Positions 10,110-61,172 of a stretch of DNA of 64,000 bases are shown piece after piece. Where the stretch lies: contig JAFRUE010000016.1 in NCBI GenBank assembly GCA_017441925.1, forward strand, positions 5,269 through 69,268, in the 5' to 3' direction. Position numbers and translations under genes: made by a program. Under the pieces are notes generated by a model. It saw only the letters and a program-made list of their open reading frames with translations. It searched no databases and was not told where the DNA came from. The stretch's first letter is position 1. Each line of letters opens with the position of its first letter. This stretch comes from Bacillota bacterium. GTDB taxonomy: Bacteria; Bacillota; Clostridia; Lachnospirales; Bianqueaceae.

Positions 10110-11453
10110 TTATTTCTGTGTCTTCTTATTTGTATCTTTACGGGATCTGTCCCCGGAAGCCCGGATCGTCCTGTCCAGTTCGGCGATCACTTCCTCCTGC
10201 GTCCTGCGCGGAGCTTTCAGCAGATCATAGAAAAGAACGCTGAGTACCGCGACGACCAGCACCGCCGCGATATGGACGGAGTCCTCTCCCCACGGCTGTA
10301 TGAAATAATTGCCGCTGATATAGTGATAATAGGCTATTCCTGATGAAAGCTGCATCATCGGGATCAGGAACCAGCGCCGTCCTTTCACGATCGCGTACAC
10401 GACGACCAGCACGTCAAGCAGATAGAAATATCGCTCGTGCATATGCGGGAGGAAGAAGACCGTGATCCCGATCAGGAACGCCGCTGCGTTCAGCAGACTG
10501 TCTCCGAGCGGCTGTATACGGCTAAGCCACAGGATCGCGAAGAATCCGCCGATCATGAACAGCGCGAACAGAGTCGCGCCGCGGTTGATGATCATCTGTC
10601 CGTATTCCCGGAACGCATAGAGCTGCCAGAAATTCGCGCAGCCGAGCGTCAGCTTCGTATAGCCCTGCATCTGTTTCTGATAGAACAGGAACGGCTCAGT
10701 AAATCCCGCTCCGCAGATATACGCGGGCAGGAACGACGCGAGCACCGAAAGCGGCACATATACCGCCGCGGTCAGCCGCAGTCTGCGCTGCAGGATCAGA
10801 TAGACCAGGAACGGCGCGAGGAAAAACGCCTGCAGCTTGTTCGCGAGCGCGAACCCGAACATGATGAAGACCGGGCAGCTTTTTCCGCGCAGTGCAAAAT
10901 ACAGTGAATACAGCAGGAAGCAGACGTAGATGCAGTCAGAATTGCCCCAGATGGCCGAGTTGATGAACTGTACCGGCAGCATCAGAACGGCAATATAGCC
11001 GATCGACGCTTTGTGGCGCGAATCCGTCAGATACCGGATGATCAGATAGACTGCCGCCGCATTCAGGATATCGGTGCAGAAATAAAAACCTTTTAACAGC
11101 GTCATCCAGTTCGCAAAGTACGTATGCGGGCCGACCGTGATCTCCGCCCCTGTCGGAAAGAGCGAGAGCACACCGACCGCAAAAAGATACAGCGGCGAAT
11201 AGTCCGCGTCGACCGTATAGAACCGCTGCAGCCCGACCTCCCGGATCTGCTGCATCCATTTGAAAATATAACCGGTCACGTCCTTGGTCGGAAACGGGGA
11301 CATCGCGAATTTGGCCATCATCGCGACTGCCGTCACAATCAATATCAGCAGGACATTGCTGTTCTTATGAAGAAACCGCAGTACAACTGCACTGCATCGA
11401 TCATACTCTCTTCGGAAAGATGCTGCAAAGCTTTTCTTTTTCTGATTCTTCAT
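10110..11453 (-). CDS. polytopic membrane protein, GT-C-like glycosyltransferase (Gpi18/PIG-V-like mannosyltransferase family, tentative)
   Basis: 447 aa with about 11 hydrophobic segments. The N-terminal loop motif (PTKDVTGYIFKWMQQI...DADYSPLYLF) resembles COG5542-type proteins. Confidence 0.55.
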   Translation of the reverse strand: MKNQKKKSFAASFRREYDRCSAVVLRFLHKNSNVLLILIVTAVAMMAKFAMSPFPTKDVTGYIFKWMQQIREVGLQRFYTVDADYSPLYLFAVGVLSLFPTGAEITVGPHTYFANWMTLLKGFYFCTDILNAAAVYLIIRYLTDSRHKASIGYIAVLMLPVQFINSAIWGNSDCIYVCFLLYSLYFALRGKSCPVFIMFGFALANKLQAFFLAPFLVYLILQRRLRLTAAVYVPLSVLASFLPAYICGAGFTEPFLFYQKQMQGYTKLTLGCANFWQLYAFREYGQMIINRGATLFALFMIGGFFAILWLSRIQPLGDSLLNAAAFLIGITVFFLPHMHERYFYLLDVLVVVYAIVKGRRWFLIPMMQLSSGIAYYHYISGNYFIQPWGEDSVHIAAVLVVAVLSVLFYDLLKAPRRTQEEVIAELDRTIRASGDRSRKDTNKKTQK

Positions 11454-11507
11454 TTTATAATCTCTTTTCGGATCAAGCTATTTTCGATTTGTATACTATA
11501 ATCTTTA

Positions 11508-12701
11508 TTAATGGCACCTCTTGCAAGGTTCATATCCTCTCTCAACTGCTTCATCATAAGAAATCGGAATACAACTGTTCTTAAGGCTAGAACACCATGC
11601 TTCATGATATTTAGAGCCTGTGTTCGTTATATATACGATTCTGCCTTCCAATGGTTCCTGTGCCGGTCCTTTCTCCGGAGCGCCTGTGTCTTCTGAACCA
11701 GTTTCATACACTATAAGGGTTTCCCCTTCCTCCTTCACAGGATCAGGCTCTGAAGCAGGAGTCGGTTCTTCTGTTACTACTTCTTTAGTTTCTTCAATTG
11801 GTTCTTCTATCGGTTCCTCCATCACTTCTTTTGTCGGTTCTTCTATTACTTCTTCAGATGCTTCTTCCGCCTGCTTTTCTGTCGTCTCCAGTTCATATAC
11901 AGATTCCACAGATGATTCCGAAACAGCTGCAATCTCTGCAGTCGATTCTTCTGTAATAATTACTGCCTGTTCTGGTTGATAAGATGCTTCCTGAGAACTT
12001 TCTATCAAGATAGAATTCTCGTTTGAAATTACATCTTCTGTTTGAATGGATCTCTCTATATTTTCACTGTTTTCAACTACAATAAGCTCAAAGGATTCTT
12101 CTTTTGATTCTTTTGCAGAGCTATTTTCCAACAAAACAGCTGGAGTTATTCCTCTCATCATAGAATCCTCTGTATTCTCTCCGGAAGATTCCGAAACTGC
12201 TGTACTATCGACAGATTGAGTTGTCGATTTATCCTGACTCGGATAAAAAGCGATAGCTGCTACTAATAATATAACGCATATAATAATTATTGATGATCTG
12301 TTATTTATACTGTCTGGCAAATAACCCATGATACGATTTCTGAGAGGTGACACCAATAAAGCCAGCAATGCAAAAGCTAGAATAGGTATTATTGCACCAG
12401 ATGATAGTATAGATAAAGCGGAAACAGCAAAAAAGCCACAACCAATCCAACTCCAGATTTTTTTAGCTTTCAACCTATCTCTTTGAGATCGTTCAGTTTT
12501 TACCGGCCGGTCCTCAGGAACGGTTGTACTTACATACGACAATCCTGTACCCGGAATTCCTGCTGATTTTGTTTTCTTGCCGCTTGAATGCATTGTGTAA
12601 TGCAAGCCTTTAGTTCCAATTGTAGTACTGATACCTTTTTTACCGATATTCAGCTTCGCTTCTTTACCAATCTTTATATTTCTCTTAAATCGCAGTCCCA
12701 T
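11508..12701 (-). CDS. DUF4236 domain membrane protein with acidic low-complexity region and C-terminal Cys/His motif
   Basis: N-terminus MGLRFKRNIKIGKEAKLNIGKKGISTTIGTKGLHY...GIPGTGLSY matches the DUF4236 signature. Two TM segments follow, then a Glu/Pro/Thr-rich repeat region. C-terminus is GSKYHEAWCSSL...GYEPCKRCH. About 35% GC. Confidence 0.75.
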   Translation of the reverse strand: MGLRFKRNIKIGKEAKLNIGKKGISTTIGTKGLHYTMHSSGKKTKSAGIPGTGLSYVSTTVPEDRPVKTERSQRDRLKAKKIWSWIGCGFFAVSALSILSSGAIIPILAFALLALLVSPLRNRIMGYLPDSINNRSSIIIICVILLVAAIAFYPSQDKSTTQSVDSTAVSESSGENTEDSMMRGITPAVLLENSSAKESKEESFELIVVENSENIERSIQTEDVISNENSILIESSQEASYQPEQAVIITEESTAEIAAVSESSVESVYELETTEKQAEEASEEVIEEPTKEVMEEPIEEPIEETKEVVTEEPTPASEPDPVKEEGETLIVYETGSEDTGAPEKGPAQEPLEGRIVYITNTGSKYHEAWCSSLKNSCIPISYDEAVERGYEPCKRCH

Positions 12702-12769
12702 GTCAACGTCTCCTAATACTATGCCTTAATACTTTACGTTTCCCAAAGCTTTACTGTTTATCAGTTCTT

Positions 12770-13501
12770 TTAAACATTATCTGGACTCTCTTTTTTCTCC
12801 AGTTCATTCATATATCCGGCAGTTATTATACCTGCCGGCAAAGCAACTATTGCAATTCCAAACACTGACGACACCATGGTTACAATTCTGCCGAGTACAG
12901 AAACTGGATAAATATCTCCATAACCTACCGTAGTCAACGAAACCGTCGCCCAGTAAACAGCATCAAAGAAAGTATCAAAAGAGTCTGGCTCAACATTAAA
13001 AATCAAAAGTGCCGAAACAAGTATATACCCACCGGCCAACACGCAGACAGCAATCAAGGAATTCTTCGATGATCGGAGTACATTTCCTATTATTGCAAAG
13101 CTTTTCGAATACCTCATGGTTTTGAAAGCCCGAACAACGCGTAATGCACGAATCATTCGTAATACACGAAGCAGTTTAAAACTGCTGCTAACAATAGTTA
13201 AAGACGGCAATATAGATAGCAGATCTATGATCGCCATCAGTGAAAAAGGATATCTTATAAATGAAAAAACACTGTTATTTTCAAATTTATAATCTGCTGT
13301 AATCCACCGCAGCAAATAATCAATTATAAATACTACTACAGCAGCTTTATCTATAATTAGGAAGAAGTTATTCTCTATTTTAAAAGCCAGCGGAATCAGA
13401 CTTAAAACGATCATAACTATCATGAAAACATCATATACTTTACTCAACCGATCATTTCCGGCTGACTTTTCAATGATCTCAAAAATACGTTTTCGGCTCA
13501 T
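12770..13501 (-). CDS. voltage-gated-type potassium channel (6-TM ion transport protein)
   Basis: S4-like LLRVLRMIRALRVVRAFKTMR and selectivity filter TTVGYGD. 243 aa, low GC. Confidence 0.88.
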   Translation of the reverse strand: MSRKRIFEIIEKSAGNDRLSKVYDVFMIVMIVLSLIPLAFKIENNFFLIIDKAAVVVFIIDYLLRWITADYKFENNSVFSFIRYPFSLMAIIDLLSILPSLTIVSSSFKLLRVLRMIRALRVVRAFKTMRYSKSFAIIGNVLRSSKNSLIAVCVLAGGYILVSALLIFNVEPDSFDTFFDAVYWATVSLTTVGYGDIYPVSVLGRIVTMVSSVFGIAIVALPAGIITAGYMNELEKKESPDNV

Positions 13502-14029
13502 CTTATCATAGCTCCTTCGTTTGTGTCAAAAAAGGCTTTTCTGATACATTTATAATATGAAAATGGAGAAAGGTTTTTCTCTCTTTATTCGGTTCAAATA
13601 TATATTTCTACTGAACTCAAGCTCTTCCAACTCACCTATGCAAGAATTTATATCTGAATACTATTCTGATACTTCTCACAGTCATCCTTTTGTCATTACT
13701 ATATTTTGTAATTATAGTATACCACAATTATACAATAAAATACGCAGTAATTCTGAATCGACTTCACTATTTTTTAGGAAAAATCAAGTAATGGTAAATA
13801 CACTACTATGAGATTTTCTATACAGATATACTTTCTATCAATAGAAAGTCCAGTGAAAAGCAGTTTTTTGAGACTTGACGAAAAACCTGATTTATAATTA
13901 TAATAACTAGAAGATATGATAATGTCTATCATGCTACCAAAGATAATCTTTTACGTAATAACTGGTATGAACTGTATAGCACGACAGGGAAACACCTGTC
14001 ATAAATCATTTCAATAGGAGGTCATCATT

Positions 14030-41258: not shown

Positions 41259-42821
41259 ATGGCAGACATTTACACCAATCCCATTCTGAAGGGTGATTAT
41301 TCCGATCCTGACGTGATCCGTGTCGGGAACGATTTCTACATGACGAGTTCGTCGTTCACGTATTTCCCGGGCATGCCCATCCTGCATTCAACGGATCTGG
41401 TCCACTGGGAGCATATCGGGTACGCCGCGCAGTCGCTCCCCTTCCCCGCGTACGAGAACACCAACCACAAAAAAGGCACCTGGGCGCCTTGCATCCGGTA
41501 CCATAACGGGACGTTCTATGTATATGTATGCGCACCAGACGAAGGACTGCTGGCCTTTACGGCCTCTGACCCGGCCGGCCCGTGGCGGATGACACACGCG
41601 GCGAACGAGACCGGCTGGATCGATCCGACGGTGCTTTTTGACGATGACGGTTCCGTCTGGCTGGTCCACGCCTGGGCGAGAAGCCGGGCTGCCATCGATT
41701 CACGTCTGTATCTGCACCGGATGAACGCGAACGGCACCAAGGTCATTGACGGAGGTGTCGAGATCTTCCACGAAGAGAAAAGGCACCCCACGACGGAAGG
41801 TCCCAAGATCTACAAGCGAAACGACTATTACTATATCATGAGTCCTGCCGGCGGCGTCAAAACCGGCTGGCAGCTAATCCTGCGCTCCCGGAATATCGAG
41901 GGGCCCTACGATGAAAAAATCGTGCTGCACCAGGGGACCACGGACGTGAACGGTCCGCATCAGGGCGGATGGGTGGATACACCTTACGGCGAAGACTATT
42001 TCATCCATTTCCAGGATGTGTATCCGTACGGCCGCATCCCGCATCTGCAGCCGGTGAAGTGGGTCGATGACTGGCCGCTGATGGGCACTAATCAGGACGC
42101 GGACGGCTGCGGTGAACCCGTGAAGGAGGCTCCGATGCCCAAAGGTCTTCCCGTCACGGAGCCGAAGATCTATACTTCGGACGATTTTACTGGGGACAGA
42201 CTCGGTCTGCAGTGGCAATGGCAGGCAAATCCCCGTACGGAATGGTACAGCCTGACCGAGAATCCTGGCGCCCTGCGGCTCAATACCTGCCGGATCCCCC
42301 GGACAGGGACACTTTTCCACGCGGGAAACTTCCTGTCGCAGCTGATGCAGTCCTTTGATTTTACATGGACAGTCAAGGTCGATCTGCATGCGAAAGAGCC
42401 CGGCGATCGGGCCGGTATCGCCGTGATGGGCTACCGGTATCATTATCTGGCGGTCGAAGCAGGCCGGGACGGATATGTTCTGAAATTGGTCGACGGCGAA
42501 GCGCAGGATATGCCGCGCGGTTATGTCGAGCAGGTGACGGAAAGCGCGGCCGAAGAAGCGCCGCTTGCATCCGGCACTGTGACGCTGCGGATGACCGTCC
42601 GGAGCGATTTTGCCGGCGAGCATCCGCGGATGTTTGTTCAGTATTCTTACAATGAAGACGGCATCACCTTCCGGAATATCGGATCCGAGCGCGAAGGCTT
42701 CGCCGGCGGTTGGACCGGCGCGCGGCCCGGCATCTTCGCGGCGAATTTCCGCGGCAAGGTCAGCCCGGGTTACGCAGACTTTTATCATCTGACTGTAGAG
42801 CCGCTGCTCTCGTTGTGCTGA
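41259..42821 (+). CDS. glycoside hydrolase family 43 (beta-xylosidase/alpha-L-arabinofuranosidase) with C-terminal beta-sandwich domain
   Basis: NPILKGDYSDPDVIRVGNDFYMTSSSF, TWAPCIRYHNGTFYVY, TEGPKIYKRNDYYYI. Confidence 0.9.
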   Translation: MADIYTNPILKGDYSDPDVIRVGNDFYMTSSSFTYFPGMPILHSTDLVHWEHIGYAAQSLPFPAYENTNHKKGTWAPCIRYHNGTFYVYVCAPDEGLLAFTASDPAGPWRMTHAANETGWIDPTVLFDDDGSVWLVHAWARSRAAIDSRLYLHRMNANGTKVIDGGVEIFHEEKRHPTTEGPKIYKRNDYYYIMSPAGGVKTGWQLILRSRNIEGPYDEKIVLHQGTTDVNGPHQGGWVDTPYGEDYFIHFQDVYPYGRIPHLQPVKWVDDWPLMGTNQDADGCGEPVKEAPMPKGLPVTEPKIYTSDDFTGDRLGLQWQWQANPRTEWYSLTENPGALRLNTCRIPRTGTLFHAGNFLSQLMQSFDFTWTVKVDLHAKEPGDRAGIAVMGYRYHYLAVEAGRDGYVLKLVDGEAQDMPRGYVEQVTESAAEEAPLASGTVTLRMTVRSDFAGEHPRMFVQYSYNEDGITFRNIGSEREGFAGGWTGARPGIFAANFRGKVSPGYADFYHLTVEPLLSLC

Positions 42822-42823
42822 TT

Positions 42824-43042
42824 GCGGCGGTAAAAATTTCATAAATGCTGTTTTTTACCGCCGGTTTTGGGCTCTGATGGCTGAACAGATTCGAAAAAAT
42901 GGCTTATTTTCAGCCAGTTCTGCTTGGGTCGGCAGAATAATTCAATAAATTCACTGATTTTTCTGCCAGGGGGCCCCATTTTGAGTCTTAATGACCTAAA
43001 TCTGGCGGTAAAATAAAGAAAAATAGGCGTTTTTACCGCCAC
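42824..43042 (+). repeat. multi-hairpin intergenic repeat element, copy A
   Basis: Four inverted repeats: GGCGGTAAAAA 42826-36 / TTTTTACCGCC 42852-62; GGCTGAA 42879-85 / TTCAGCC 42909-15; GGCAGAA 42931-37 / TTCTGCC 42961-67; GGCGGTAAAA 43004-13 / TTTTACCGCC 43031-40. The same architecture recurs at 60874-61082. Confidence 0.8.
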
Positions 43043-43124
43043 AGTCCGGCAAAAGTGTCCCCGGACACATCCGGCGCTATCACACCATCAACCACAATCA
43101 TTCATCACCCATAATCACTGCACC

Positions 43125-43181
43125 AAAAAAGGGCTTTGCAAGAGGATGATCCAAGAAGATAACCTCTGCAAAGTCCTTTTT
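43125..43181. terminator. bidirectional intrinsic terminator downstream of the RidA gene
   Basis: AAAAAA-GGGCTTTGCAAGAGG...CCTCTGCAAAGTCC-TTTTT. Confidence 0.65.
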
Positions 43182-50398: not shown

Positions 50399-51524
50399 GA
50401 ACGATGTCCTCCCATAAGATATTCAGGTCGTGTATCAGGGTCTCCGGCTGCAATATGCCGGCATTACTCAGCCTGTCAGGCTTCAGGTCCGTAAAAATGT
50501 CCCGCAGTGCTTCGCCCGTAAAAGGTCTCCCGGCCGTAAACCGCGTCATGATCTCCGAAACGGCCGGCGCGATGCCGGTATCCAGTGCGTCCGTATAAAG
50601 CCGGACCCTGCGGCATCTCCCGCGCGCCGCTGAAATCTCCAGACTCGCGGTGCCCCAGGAGAAACGCATCTCCCGGCTGCGCGCCGAGGCCGGAGGTTCG
50701 CTCCCGTAAAGCCATTCCGGTGAGGCCAGCCGCTCAGCGAACGCCTGTATCTCTGCCTCTTTCGGATAAAACGGGATATCTGCGGGGTCGGAAGCGCCGG
50801 CCAGAACAGAACTGTCCCCTTCTGCGCCATATTCCCGGCAAAAAGCCGCTGCCAGCGCTGCTTCAAGTTTCTCCAGCGTCAGCTTCGGCTCGAGCTCTTT
50901 CAGATTGACCACACGGGACCGGACCGAAGCGACTCCGCTGCCTGCGAGCTTCGCGGATCCGGGGGTCAGATAGCGGGACAGATCCTGCATCGAAAGCGAC
51001 AGGAGCAATGTCCCGTGATGGCAGTGCCGCGGTCCGTCCTGATAGAACGCGTTCCCGGAGACTTTGCGTCGGGATCCGTCCGGCAGCAGCGTTTCCAGAT
51101 CGTTCCGCCCGGATACTTCCGCCCGGATTCCCAGCGACTCCAATGCCGCGCGGATCACGGACATCTGACGCGGAATGTTATACAGCGGCTCGGCCGCGAT
51201 AAACGAGAAGTTCAGGTTCCCCGGATCGTGATAGACCGCTCCGCCGCCCGAAAATCTCCTCACCGCAAGGATCCCGTCCGCCTGCATGGCCTGCAGACTG
51301 CATTCGCGCTGCAGATTCTGGTTGCGGCCGATGATCACGGACCGGCCGTTTTGCCACAGATACAGCAGAACTGTCCCCGCCGGAACGTTTTCCGTGAGAA
51401 GATGCTCCACCGCCAGGTTGCGGTATGGGTCCAGCCCGTCCGTTATAAGCAGGAAAGGCCGGCAGTCCTCTCCCCGCGCAAGAGCGGAGCCGGGGCGGCC
51501 AGCCTTCATAAGATCAGAAGTCAT
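50385..51524 (-). CDS. lplA: lipoate--protein ligase
   Basis: 379 aa. DPYRNLAVEHLL, RRFSGGGAVYHDPGNLNFS, GNAFY..HHGTLL motifs. Confidence 0.88.
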   Translation of the reverse strand: MTSDLMKAGRPGSALARGEDCRPFLLITDGLDPYRNLAVEHLLTENVPAGTVLLYLWQNGRSVIIGRNQNLQRECSLQAMQADGILAVRRFSGGGAVYHDPGNLNFSFIAAEPLYNIPRQMSVIRAALESLGIRAEVSGRNDLETLLPDGSRRKVSGNAFYQDGPRHCHHGTLLLSLSMQDLSRYLTPGSAKLAGSGVASVRSRVVNLKELEPKLTLEKLEAALAAAFCREYGAEGDSSVLAGASDPADIPFYPKEAEIQAFAERLASPEWLYGSEPPASARSREMRFSWGTASLEISAARGRCRRVRLYTDALDTGIAPAVSEIMTRFTAGRPFTGEALRDIFTDLKPDRLSNAGILQPETLIHDLNILWEDIVHEYL

Positions 51525-55931: not shown

Positions 55932-56085
55932 GTATATGACCTGAAAGATTCTCCCGGATCTCTCCGGAATTGCTTCTTCGGTACCGCGGTAATCGCGAAT
56001 CTCCTGAGTGTCGTCAGCAATCCGGTCCTTTTGCCTGAGAGTTTTTGCCCCTTCGGCGCCTAAGCTGGCCTCTCCCGGCTGCCTC
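55932..56085 (-). promoter_or_regulatory. tandem glycine riboswitch
   Basis: Minus strand, aptamer 1: GGGAGAGGCC...GCGCCGAAGGGGCAAAAACUCUCAGGCAAAAGGAC. Aptamer 2: CUCAGGAGA...GUACCGAAGAAGCAAUUCCGGAGAG. Both are canonical glycine-aptamer cores. Confidence 0.88.
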
Positions 56086-56120
56086 ATCCGACTGACTGTA
56101 TTCAGTTTTTCCACAGAAGC

Positions 56121-56223: not shown

Positions 56224-56240
56224 CGATTCAATTCCATACT

Positions 56241-56518
56241 AAAAGGCTATGAAGAGAAGAGTAGTCTGCACAGGGCCTTACAGAGAGCACCCGGCCGGTG
56301 AGAGGGGCAAGGAGCATGCAGATGAAATACGTCTCGGAGCTACGTCCCGAACGCGTCCTTACAGGCGTCAGTAGGCGGCGACGGGAGGGCAGCCGTTATC
56401 TGTGCCAGGGTATTTATCAGACAGTACCTGCAGAGGCGTCCGGTGTGAGCCGGGCGTGAACTAAGGTGGTTTCACGGGAATCATACTCCCGTCCTTAACG
56501 GACGGGAGTTTTATTTTT
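56241..56518 (+). promoter_or_regulatory. T-box leader (tyrosine specifier) with terminator
   Basis: Stem I AGAGAAGAGUAG region. Specifier-loop GAAAUACG with UAC at 56328-56330. T-box sequence AAGGUGGUUUCACGGG (56463-56478). Terminator ACTCCCGTCC-ttaac-GGACGGGAGT followed by TTTTATTTTT (56485-56518). Confidence 0.88.
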
Positions 56519-57793: not shown

Positions 57794-57850
57794 TCAAAGC
57801 CGGGGAGACATCCGGCCGGCAAGAAGAATTCGCCTGACGCAAGAGACTTT

Positions 57851-57902
57851 CCCTCATTTTGAGTGAAAGAACAGCTCCACTGGCTGAACAATCCGGTAAA
57901 AA
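57851..57902 (+). repeat. partial/degenerate copy of the multi-hairpin repeat family (copy C)
   Basis: CCCTCATTTTGAGT-N15-CTGGCTGAACA...CCGGTAAAAA. It shares CATTTTGAGT-N15-CTGGC at identical spacing with copy A (42977-43006). It also shares the 9-mer GGCTGAACA with 42879-42887. Confidence 0.55.
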
Positions 57903-57910
57903 CGCGAAAA

Positions 57911-57947
57911 GTTCCGTACGGAGGGACACTTCTGTACGGAACTTTTT
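57911..57947. terminator. bidirectional intrinsic terminator between tyrS and glnN
   Basis: AAAA-GTTCCGTACGGA...TGTACGGAAC-TTTTT. Confidence 0.8.
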
Positions 57948-60721: not shown

Positions 60722-60873
60722 GGCAGCGCAGCTTTGATGCCGGCGCAGATCGAAGGAATGCAGGCAGTTTCGGCCCTGCAAGTCGGCATGGATCAGACCA
60801 TTGCCGACAGTTTCGCATCACCGCCGGGCCATTTCGCATCGAAACTGCAGAACTGTCCCTGGCAGGCCGGGCT

Positions 60874-61082
60874 GTGGCGGTAAAAGCGCCTTCTTTTTCA
60901 ATTTTTACCGCCATTCGGGCTGAAAAAAGCATCAAGAAACCGCTGATTTCACTATTTTTGATGCCGATTCGTGTCACTGCGGCAGAACAAATGGCGAAAT
61001 CAGCGGTTTTTTCTGCCGACAAGGCCAAAATCCAGTGAAAACTGGCAGTAAAAATCGAGCTTTTCCTGTTTTTTACCGCCGC
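60874..61082 (+). repeat. multi-hairpin intergenic repeat element, copy B
   Basis: GGCGGTAAAA 60876-85 / TTTTTACCGCC 60902-12; GGCTGAAAAAA 60918-28 with GCATCAA 60929-35 / TTGATGC 60958-64; GGCAGAA 60981-87 / TTCTGCC 61011-17; GGCAGTAAAAA 61044-54 / TTTTTACCGCC 61070-80. Confidence 0.8.
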
Positions 61083-61172
61083 AACCAACACAAGGCAACC
61101 TTATAAGACAACGAGAGCTTGCGAAAAACGGCCGATCCGTTTCCGCAAGCTCATTTTCTGTCCGCAAGCTGT

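Follow-up and report, generated by a model that had tools for sequence, protein, structure and literature searches.

Modular multi-hairpin repeats of a previously undescribed family in an uncultured rumen Firmicute

Results

Two multi-hairpin repeats in opposite orientations

We analyzed a 64,000-nucleotide stretch of DNA (hereafter "the window") from an uncultured rumen Firmicute (Bacillota; Clostridia; Lachnospirales; Bianqueaceae; GenBank assembly GCA_017441925.1, contig JAFRUE010000016.1, positions 5,269 to 69,268), which carries two copies of an intergenic multi-hairpin repeat belonging to a previously undescribed family. Copy A (42811–43075) lies between a GH43 gene (+) and a convergent RidA gene (−), with its hairpins starting directly 3′ of the GH43 stop codon (42821). 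Copy B (60849–61095) lies between the convergent genes of a HIT protein (+) and a 101-aa open reading frame (ORF; −) that follows a cysteine desulfurase. Both copies contain four hairpins, seven of the eight being 37 nt long (including all four of copy A, each exactly so) and one 36 nt. A first-pass annotation of this stretch, made from its letters, had described four hairpins in copy A and a related cluster ~18 kb away, and both were borne out. The extent given at the time was nevertheless too small, since a 15-nt block on the 5′ side and about 25–35 nt of 3′ flank are conserved as well. The full set of features is as follows, each copy being listed from end hairpin X to end hairpin Y.

Copy A
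42811–42825, plus strand: 5′ block CGTTGTGCTGATTGC (family consensus CCTTGTGTTGGTTGC), 15 nt, covering the last codons and the stop of GH43
42826–42862, plus strand: end hairpin X, 37 nt, 11-bp stem GGCGGTAAAAA/TTTTTACCGCC, loop TTTCATAAATGCTGT
42863–42878, plus strand: conserved linker GGTTTTGGGCTCTGAT, from the alignment of copies
42879–42915, plus strand: inner hairpin 2, 37 nt, stem GGCTGAA/TTCAGCC; model score 37.0 bits on the plus strand
42931–42967, plus strand: inner hairpin 3, 37 nt, stem GGCAGAA/TTCTGCC; covariance model and DNA fold
43004–43040, plus strand: end hairpin Y, 37 nt, stem GGCGGTAAAA/TTTTACCGCC, loop TAAAGAAAAATAGGCGT; model score 47.9 bits on the plus strand
43041–43075, plus strand: 3′ flank, conserved, with ACAGTCCGGC and then AAAAGTGTCCCCGGACAC, the latter a degenerate, palindromic form of the GGGACAGTT motif

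Copy B
61081–61095, minus strand: 5′ block CCTTGTGTTGGTTGC, the exact consensus
61044–61080, minus strand: end hairpin X, GGCGGTAAAAAACAGGAAAAGCTCGATTTTTACTGCC on the minus strand, with one G·T pair; 40.5 bits on the minus vs 32.3 on the plus strand
60981–61017, minus strand: inner hairpin 2, stem GGCAGAA/TTCTGCC; 39.0 bits on the plus vs 35.2 on the minus strand
60929–60964, minus strand: inner hairpin 3, 36 nt, stem GCATCAAAAA/TTTcTTGATGC; covariance model and DNA fold
60876–60912, minus strand: end hairpin Y, GGCGGTAAAAATTGAAAAAGAAGGCGCTTTTACCGCC on the minus strand; 44.0 bits on the minus vs 27.3 on the plus strand
60849–60875, minus strand: conserved 3′ flank ACAGCCCGGCCTGCC, then AGGGACAGTTCT (60849–60860)

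The two clusters had initially been described as sharing the same stems in the same order and orientation, whereas copy B is in fact the reverse complement of copy A. This follows from the flanks of the flipped copy B (TTGTGYTGRTTGC on the 5′ side and ACAGYCCGGC on the 3′ side), which align with those of copy A, from the flipped loop of 60876–60912, which matches the copy A loop of 43004–43040 (..GAAAAA.A.GGCG), and from the strand-specific model scores, which were 8–17 bits higher on the minus strand for three of the four B modules and higher on the plus strand for all four A modules. The remaining B module, inner hairpin 2, has a loop that is opposite in polarity to the loops of the other modules and complementary to the hairpin 3 loop. 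The offset of 105 nt reported between the first and third hairpins of both copies is correct as a number but does not imply collinearity, since modules are spaced 52–53 nt apart. The stem set attributed to copy B required revision too: TTCAGCC is absent from this copy, so that GGCTGAA at 60918 is not a hairpin arm, and the GCATCAA hairpin at 60929–60964 (GCATCAAGAAA/TTTTTGATGC), second in plus-strand order, had been overlooked. The impression that most loop sequence differs between copies arises only when copy B is misoriented. With copy B turned the right way, end-hairpin loops prove conserved in every copy, and as strongly as the stems, which undoes an argument based on conserved stems and diverged loops.

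The 10-mer GGCGGTAAAA was detected 11 times with ≤1 mismatch against 2.55 expected, a count reached in none of 100 shuffles, and a covariance model of the module, applied to the 64-kb window at E ≤ 0.001, matched these eight modules only. When folded as single-stranded DNA, seven of the eight hairpins were more stable than shuffled sequence (z −2.5 to −4.7), e.g., hairpin X of copy A at −9.4 kcal/mol (z −4.74; model score of 44.8 bits on the plus vs 35.5 on the minus strand); the hairpin at 42879–42915 folds no better than shuffled sequence (z −1.2). Loops measure 14–23 nt and the gaps between units 15–36 nt, and the GC content of the modules is 0.32–0.49 vs 0.55 for the window.

Two standard candidates were tried and rejected, in agreement with the first-pass annotation: a CRISPR array, as the units differ in stem and loop and there is neither a tandem array nor a set of identical repeats with spacers, and an intrinsic terminator, given the long loops, the A/T runs inside the stem and the absence of a T-run (U-tract) after it.

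A family of seven loci with a common layout

Next, we searched metagenome contigs with a two-hairpin pattern allowing 30 nt of slack, and recovered ten contigs. Together with the two window copies, these represent seven distinct loci (A to G) plus orthologues. Four loci (A, B, F, and G) are tied to the source genome, and loci C, D, and E come from metagenome contigs only, in the same metagenome record set (JAEEG accessions) as the orthologue contigs. Copy F lies 4.6 kb past the end of the window on the same 458-kb contig (L059), so that three loci occur within ~74 kb of contiguous source genome. Copy G was placed in the source metagenome-assembled genome at NCBI because a spurious ORF called across it (IJL53_09220) shares its IJL53 prefix with the 101-aa ORF of the window (IJL53_11825). 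A further search, with a chimeric protein made of pseudo-peptides from the conserved DNA, recovered only copy G and its orthologue.

The repeat is about 245–270 bp long, contains no conserved ORF, and has the same layout from X to Y at all loci. It starts with the 5′ block, hairpin X at positions 1–37 (loop about aTTCAnTAAAtGctgt), and the linker GGTTTTGGGCTC, continues with a second 37-nt hairpin, at position 54 in most copies (64 in B), and a variable interior holding up to two further 37-nt hairpins, and ends with hairpin Y at position 179/180 (169 in B; loop about aaAgAAAAATAGGCGC, or ..AAAAATAGGCGC in short). The 3′ flank rCAGCCYGG comes next, followed in most copies by GGGACAGTT(C), which is inverted in A and F; single modules are likewise flipped in some copies. 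From X to Y, six of the seven loci measure 215 or 216 nt and B measures 205 nt, a regularity that was not imposed by the search given the slack of its pattern. Sharing both stem and loop polarity, X and Y are direct repeats, and they score 9–17 bits higher on the same strand. As the stem is palindromic, however, the outer arms of X and Y, with their flanks, also form terminal inverted repeats, GGTTGCGGCGGTAAAA matching the reverse complement GGCTGTGGCGGTAAAA at 14 of 16 positions (GGYTGYGGCGGTAAAA). Another outer repeat pair, GAACTGTCCCTTG/CAAGGGACAGTTC, is present in copies E and D only.

Conservation of base pairing was evaluated across 24 modules. Stems vary between modules (GGCGGTAAAA, GGCTGAA, GGCAGAA, GCATCAA, and GACAGTAAAAA), each being accompanied by its own complement, and 92.5% of the cells were paired. 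Two-sided changes were observed in 7 modules for pair 4–34 and in 6 modules for pair 6–32, and none of 500 shuffles reached the observed covariation score. In line with the earlier suggestion of selection on structure, pairing is maintained through two-sided changes across modules. As a test for the RNA strand, we compared non-Watson–Crick positions and found no excess of G·U over A·C on either strand. Whole copies also fold stably (z −3.8 to −4.9), and the whole-element fold pairs the 5′ arm of X with the 3′ arm of Y (z −4.85 and −3.84), a long-range pairing that is possible only because the stem is a palindrome.

End hairpins evolve more slowly than synonymous sites

A lineage ~92% identical to the source (contigs L052, L056, and L072) provided orthologues of the four loci that could be tested (A, B, F, and G), each with the repeat at the same place. 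In the flanking genes, the two lineages are 77–86% identical at third codon positions (divergence of about 18%). Summed over the four orthologous pairs, divergence within the element was distributed as follows.

X and Y stems: 2.5%
X and Y loops: 2.9%
5′ block: 7.1%
Interior: 7.7%
3′ flank: 8.1%

X and Y therefore evolve about 6–7 times slower than third codon positions, and the lengths of orthologues are equal within 1 nt. In copy A, hairpin X is identical to its L052 orthologue and the 3′ flank is 93% identical. Copy F shows a single difference in 277 nt between lineages, the longest such stretch in a 10.5-kb alignment, with two coding stretches of 176–200 nt nearly as conserved. Locus-specific loop sequence is kept between orthologues while copies within one genome differ, and since each locus keeps its own loop, gene conversion among copies cannot explain the conservation. 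Inner hairpins, on the other hand, are decaying in some orthologues (A hairpin 3 in L052, G hairpin 3 in L072). Taken together, the end hairpins look selectively maintained.

At locus A, the repeat has also altered a protein end. The GH43 C-terminus reads ...VEPLLSLC* in the window (42806–42825) vs ...VEPAE* in L052 and P0001. Relative to L052, 133 nt are deleted in the window between the GH43 stop and the repeat, with the result that the GH43 frame runs into the 5′ block of copy A. The extra 133 nt of L052 include two further GACCTTTGTG motifs that resemble the 5′ block.

Repeats tend to cause contig ends, and this is the pattern in a more distant relative, whose 101-aa protein is 83% identical: four of four contigs end 215–300 nt past the stop of that gene, in or just beyond a hairpin region. 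Downstream of the gene lies a diverged form of the repeat, comprising a pair of 37-nt hairpins, their stems being GGCGGTA(T)/(A)TACCGC(C), in which position 8 is T-A, not A-T, and a linker, GGTTTAC(T/A)GCTATAGAC, that is almost identical to the copy F linker. No modules were found in relatives with a GH43 72–84% identical or a 101-aa protein 51–55% identical, in which gene order differs.

Searches for known families and further copies

Neither copy matched any family of Rfam 15 at the gathering threshold, the only matches elsewhere in the window being a T-box and a glycine riboswitch, and permissive thresholds yielded only chance microRNA or snoRNA matches to the two copies, far below threshold. 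The Rfam comparison suggested by the first-pass annotation thus assigned the repeat to no family, and its dispersal extends beyond two copies, to the seven loci above. A tRNA/tmRNA scan found none, Tandem Repeats Finder reported no array, and no match was obtained by BLAST of copy A against plasmids and phages, or by a hairpin pattern scan of IMG/VR viral contigs. A full-text literature search for the stem sequences returned primers only. Finally, a single-hairpin scan of 185,579 species genomes gave 39 matches, all of them lone hairpins in unrelated taxa, mostly long-stem terminators or coding sequence. The multi-hairpin layout was seen in none of them, and the source species is therefore not represented among these genomes.

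Genomic neighborhood

Beyond loci A and B, the genes next to the repeat were the following.

Locus F: LytTR response regulator / SASA esterase
Locus C: ECF S-component / DUF6364-like protein
Locus D: unknown protein / GNAT acetyltransferase
Locus E: unknown 579-aa protein
Locus G: lyxose isomerase / transglutaminase-like protein

Across the seven loci, the flanking genes are unrelated housekeeping genes. A location between convergent genes, stated earlier for all copies in the window, applies to A and B but not to the family, as F, C, D, and G lie between co-directional genes or ahead of a gene. With respect to the closest transcription unit, the repeat reads X to Y at A, C, and G, and Y to X at D, E, F, and probably B.

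Scans for terminators and promoters gave no U-tract terminator at the hairpins and no conserved promoter on either side. Terminator-like hairpins do occur next to both window copies, outside the repeat.

43125–43181: two-way terminator-like hairpin, made up of A-run, stem, and T-run, separating copy A from the RidA stop
61113–61153: terminator-like hairpin GAGCTTGCG..CGCAAGCTC between the stop of the 101-aa ORF (61173) and the 5′ block of copy B

The first of these was omitted by the simple terminator scan as its loop exceeds 8 nt, and a long-hairpin signal is present there. Since copy A lies between the GH43 stop and this hairpin, it should, judging from this arrangement, be transcribed within the 3′ untranslated region (UTR) of GH43.

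We also observed the 9-mer TGCTATAAT, of the extended −10 type, in the interior of copy F (about 6915–6925 of L059), pointing to the downstream SASA esterase gene, and again just 3′ of copy G, ahead of the transglutaminase-like gene. From these motifs, promoters may be carried or adjoined by the repeat at some loci.

Likeness to known repeat systems

We next compared the family with the small repeats and transposon ends that it most resembles. Repetitive extragenic palindromic (REP) sequences have a GTAG-type conserved tetranucleotide at the foot of the palindrome, and in IS200/IS605 elements guide nucleotides 5′ of the hairpin foot match conserved cleavage sites. A REPIN consists of two REPs in inverted orientation that form one long hairpin, with conserved ends, a spacer that differs per locus yet forms hairpins, and long dormancy at fixed sites (PMC3337134); such persistence at fixed sites over long periods is described for REP-type sequences (PMC3337134, PMC3116915).

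Like the REPs of Enterobacteria and Pseudomonas, including their bacterial interspersed mosaic elements (BIMEs) and REPINs, the repeat consists of short extragenic imperfect palindromes at many intergenic sites, in mosaic clusters, with conserved end units, a locus-specific hairpin-forming spacer, persistence at fixed sites, and no target duplication. Unlike in REPINs, X and Y are direct repeats by loop polarity rather than inverted. The units also differ from REPs in their length of 37 nt, conserved loops of 15–17 nt, A/T-rich inner stems, and Firmicute host, and in lacking a GTAG-type foot (the foot contexts are TTGC|GGCGG and NNNNN|GGCGG); nor was a RAYT gene (for a Y1 HUH transposase), which in REP/RAYT systems is flanked by the repeats, found within the ~74 kb of genome inspected.

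BOX elements (boxA-boxBn-boxC; Streptococcus pneumoniae and S. suis) share with the present family distinct end modules around an internal module array, strong folding, intergenic location, possible co-transcription, and current dormancy, as well as the remodeling of coding ends, seen here in the GH43 C-terminus fused to the 5′ block. Known BOX elements are dormant, co-transcribed, able to remodel coding-sequence ends, and have been proposed to impede 3′–5′ exonucleases (PMC3049150). Yet boxB counts vary between strains, whereas module number and the 215/216-nt length are fixed here, and the internal modules of the present repeat are individually palindromic with covarying stems. No sequence relationship is expected.

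Miniature inverted-repeat transposable elements (MITEs) are <300 bp, non-coding, A+T-rich relative to the genome, and highly base-paired (PMC3049150). The repeat resembles bacterial MITEs (Correia, ERIC/IRU, RUP, and Nezha) in each of these traits, and in having terminal inverted repeats, intergenic sites, either orientation, and a whole-repeat fold as a long inverted repeat, with the 14/16 arm match. It departs from them in the strong internal divergence of its copies, in the lack of a detectable target-site duplication and of a known parent insertion sequence with matching ends, and in the origin of its inverted repeats, which come from the palindromic stems of direct-repeat hairpins.

Finally, the ends of IS200/IS605 elements and of their palindrome-associated derivatives (PATEs) have similar subterminal hairpins at both ends and on the same strand, conserved segments outside each hairpin, and no target duplication, all as observed here. 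In contrast to IS200/IS605, however, the 4–5 nt before Y, where the right guide would lie, are not conserved, the 5 nt there differing in every copy (AATCT, CGAAT, TTCCC, AACCC, TGCCT, AAACT, and CCTCC), there is no evident conserved target tetranucleotide, the hairpins are larger, and neither tnpA nor tnpB was found in the ~74 kb. Overall, strict membership fails on at least one tested feature for REP/REPIN, BOX, MITE, and IS200/IS605-PATE alike; the first-pass comparison to REP/BIME or MITE-like palindromes stands as regards a dispersed repeat, and is not borne out as regards strict REP/RAYT or MITE membership.

Other features of the window and its relatives

Between the convergent TyrRS and GSIII genes, at 57840–57946, we observed the repeat-like fragments CATTTTGAG, GGCTGAAC, and CCGGTAAAAACGCG, and on sequence grounds this region may be a decayed third copy. 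It includes a two-way terminator hairpin (57907–57946) whose loop GAGGGACACTTCT is a variant of the GGGACAGTTCT motif, and a 17-mer, CTCAAAATGAGGGAAAG (57847–57863), that recurs with one mismatch in another intergenic region (L057, about 8083). The GGGACAGTTCT motif looked enriched across the window (22 vs 3.2 expected) but was rejected as a separate repeat family: most matches had two mismatches, and those inspected lay in coding sequence. The motif AGGGACAGTTCT occurred 22 times in the window with ≤2 mismatches vs 3.2 expected, on both strands and also inside coding sequence (an LplA-like gene), e.g., at 50808–50819, 51367–51378, and 60849–60860, an excess that could reflect codon or oligonucleotide bias or a genome-wide signal sequence.

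A low-GC island at 11000–14000 (33–46% vs 55% for the window), with genes for a DUF4236 protein (11508–12701, −) and an ion-channel protein (12770–13501, −) and A+T-rich flanks bearing several palindromes (13185–13893), was probably horizontally acquired. The two Rfam matches above threshold are ordinary and lie back to back: a glycine riboswitch aptamer upstream of the gcvT/H/P operon (56012–56087, −) and a T-box leader directly upstream of the tyrosyl-tRNA synthetase gene (56240–56499, +). In one assembly (ERZ27256800; L060, 16277–21242), PlsY, EngA, and PRPP synthetase lie downstream of TyrRS vs the gcv operon in the source contig L059, a difference due either to rearrangement or to a chimeric join near this intergenic region. 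In one relative (L067, 3288–4941), the GH31 gene that follows a 95-aa ORF in the sister contigs L068–L070 is replaced or disrupted, with only short ORFs and a GH31 C-terminal fragment called.

Discussion

We favor, with a probability of roughly 55%, the interpretation of this family as a lineage-restricted, non-coding, modular repeat of REP/BIME/BOX/MITE-like type that is fixed in place and probably co-opted as stem-loops. In such a scenario, the repeat would have spread in the past as a non-autonomous mobile element. The likeliest agent, by analogy with IS200/IS605 or REP/RAYT systems, would be an enzyme recognizing DNA hairpins, as suggested by the direct-repeat hairpins at both ends, the conserved loops, and the lack of target-site duplication. 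The repeat would now be dormant at its present sites, with the end hairpins presumably co-opted by the host and retained by selection. Their likeliest role would be that of stable stem-loops in read-through transcripts, protecting 3′ ends or insulating neighbor genes, a role that the site of copy A between GH43 stop and terminator would suit; they may also act as stem-loops of single-stranded DNA.

Several observations weigh against this interpretation. No transposase, RAYT, TnpB, or recombinase domain was found in the window and its 10-kb extension (~74 kb), there is no presence/absence difference between the source and the ~92%-identity lineage, and the copies are too diverged internally for recent transposition. 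An empty site was sought in the relatives with differing gene order, and none was found, as they offer no comparable site. Likewise, no target-site duplication was seen at either candidate boundary in the seven copies, a weak negative, since these boundaries are not set by an empty site. Recombination patches could supply part of the conservation signal. The conservation of locus-specific loops exceeds what a purely selfish or a purely structural role predicts.

This last point, which keeps a functional RNA family and a protein-docking array in serious contention, bears on another reading, which we entertain only tentatively, namely that the copies are more than relics of a mobile repeat and represent host-maintained multi-hairpin units (modules of RNA, of single-stranded DNA, or for protein recognition) built on the 215-nt scaffold, whose loops hold locus-specific information, e.g., for target recognition or protein docking. 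It would explain loops that differ between copies while being almost invariant between orthologues.

A structured non-coding RNA family, or a set of cis-acting RNA elements, in which stems act as a scaffold, locus-specific loops mediate recognition, and the host keeps each copy, appears unlikely. Such RNAs would fit the fixed length of 215/216 nt, the covarying stems and significantly stable folds, the placement of copy A inside the GH43 transcription unit upstream of a terminator, and the contrast between copies in the genome, which differ, and orthologues, in which X and Y with their locus-specific loops diverge far less than third codon positions. However, the repeat faces either way with respect to flanking genes and terminators (about 3 vs 4), neither the promoter scan nor inspection of the flanks identified a conserved promoter on either side, G·U pairs are not in excess over A·C, Rfam gave no match, and inner hairpins decay in orthologues.

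Still less likely is an array of palindromes bound by protein at the DNA level, whether by a nucleoid- or partition-type protein or by a site-specific recombinase for which inverted repeats would bound an invertible ~200-bp segment. Loops as conserved as stems do suggest sequence-specific recognition, the module spacing of 52–53 bp corresponds to about five helical turns, and the outer arms of X and Y form inverted repeats separated by about 195 bp; some copies have individual modules or the GGGACAGTT motif flipped, and the TGCTATAAT motif inside copy F points at the downstream SASA gene. Binding to double-stranded DNA would nevertheless not need two-sided, pairing-preserving changes, a single orientation, without interior inversion, is seen in all of >20 independent contigs covering loci A, B, and F, no recombinase is encoded nearby (window and 10-kb extension), and A and B, between convergent genes, offer no obvious target for a switchable promoter. 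Chance palindromes, local duplication, or ordinary terminator clusters, to which the sporadic lone GGCGGTAAAA..TTTTACCGCC hairpins of unrelated genomes (mostly long-stem terminators or coding sequence) might have pointed, are most improbable, being refuted by the common multi-part layout and conserved flanks of seven loci, the covariation, the lack of U-tracts after the stems, counts far above shuffled controls, and conserved orthologues.

Much is known about small interspersed palindromic repeats in Proteobacteria and streptococci, and very little in the uncultured Clostridia dominating rumen and gut communities, from which the present family adds a case of unusual regularity, with 37-nt modules, 52–53-nt spacing, and a constant 215-nt span from X to Y. 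It has practical effects, breaking metagenome assemblies (all four contigs of the more distant relative) and remodeling the GH43 C-terminus. With end hairpins that evolve several times slower than synonymous sites, the family also provides a tractable case in which to distinguish repeats that have been domesticated, whether as RNA stabilizers, insulators, or docking sites for proteins, from repeats that are simply tolerated. If a mobilizing enzyme were found, hairpin-dependent transposition of the REP/RAYT type would be extended to a new host group.

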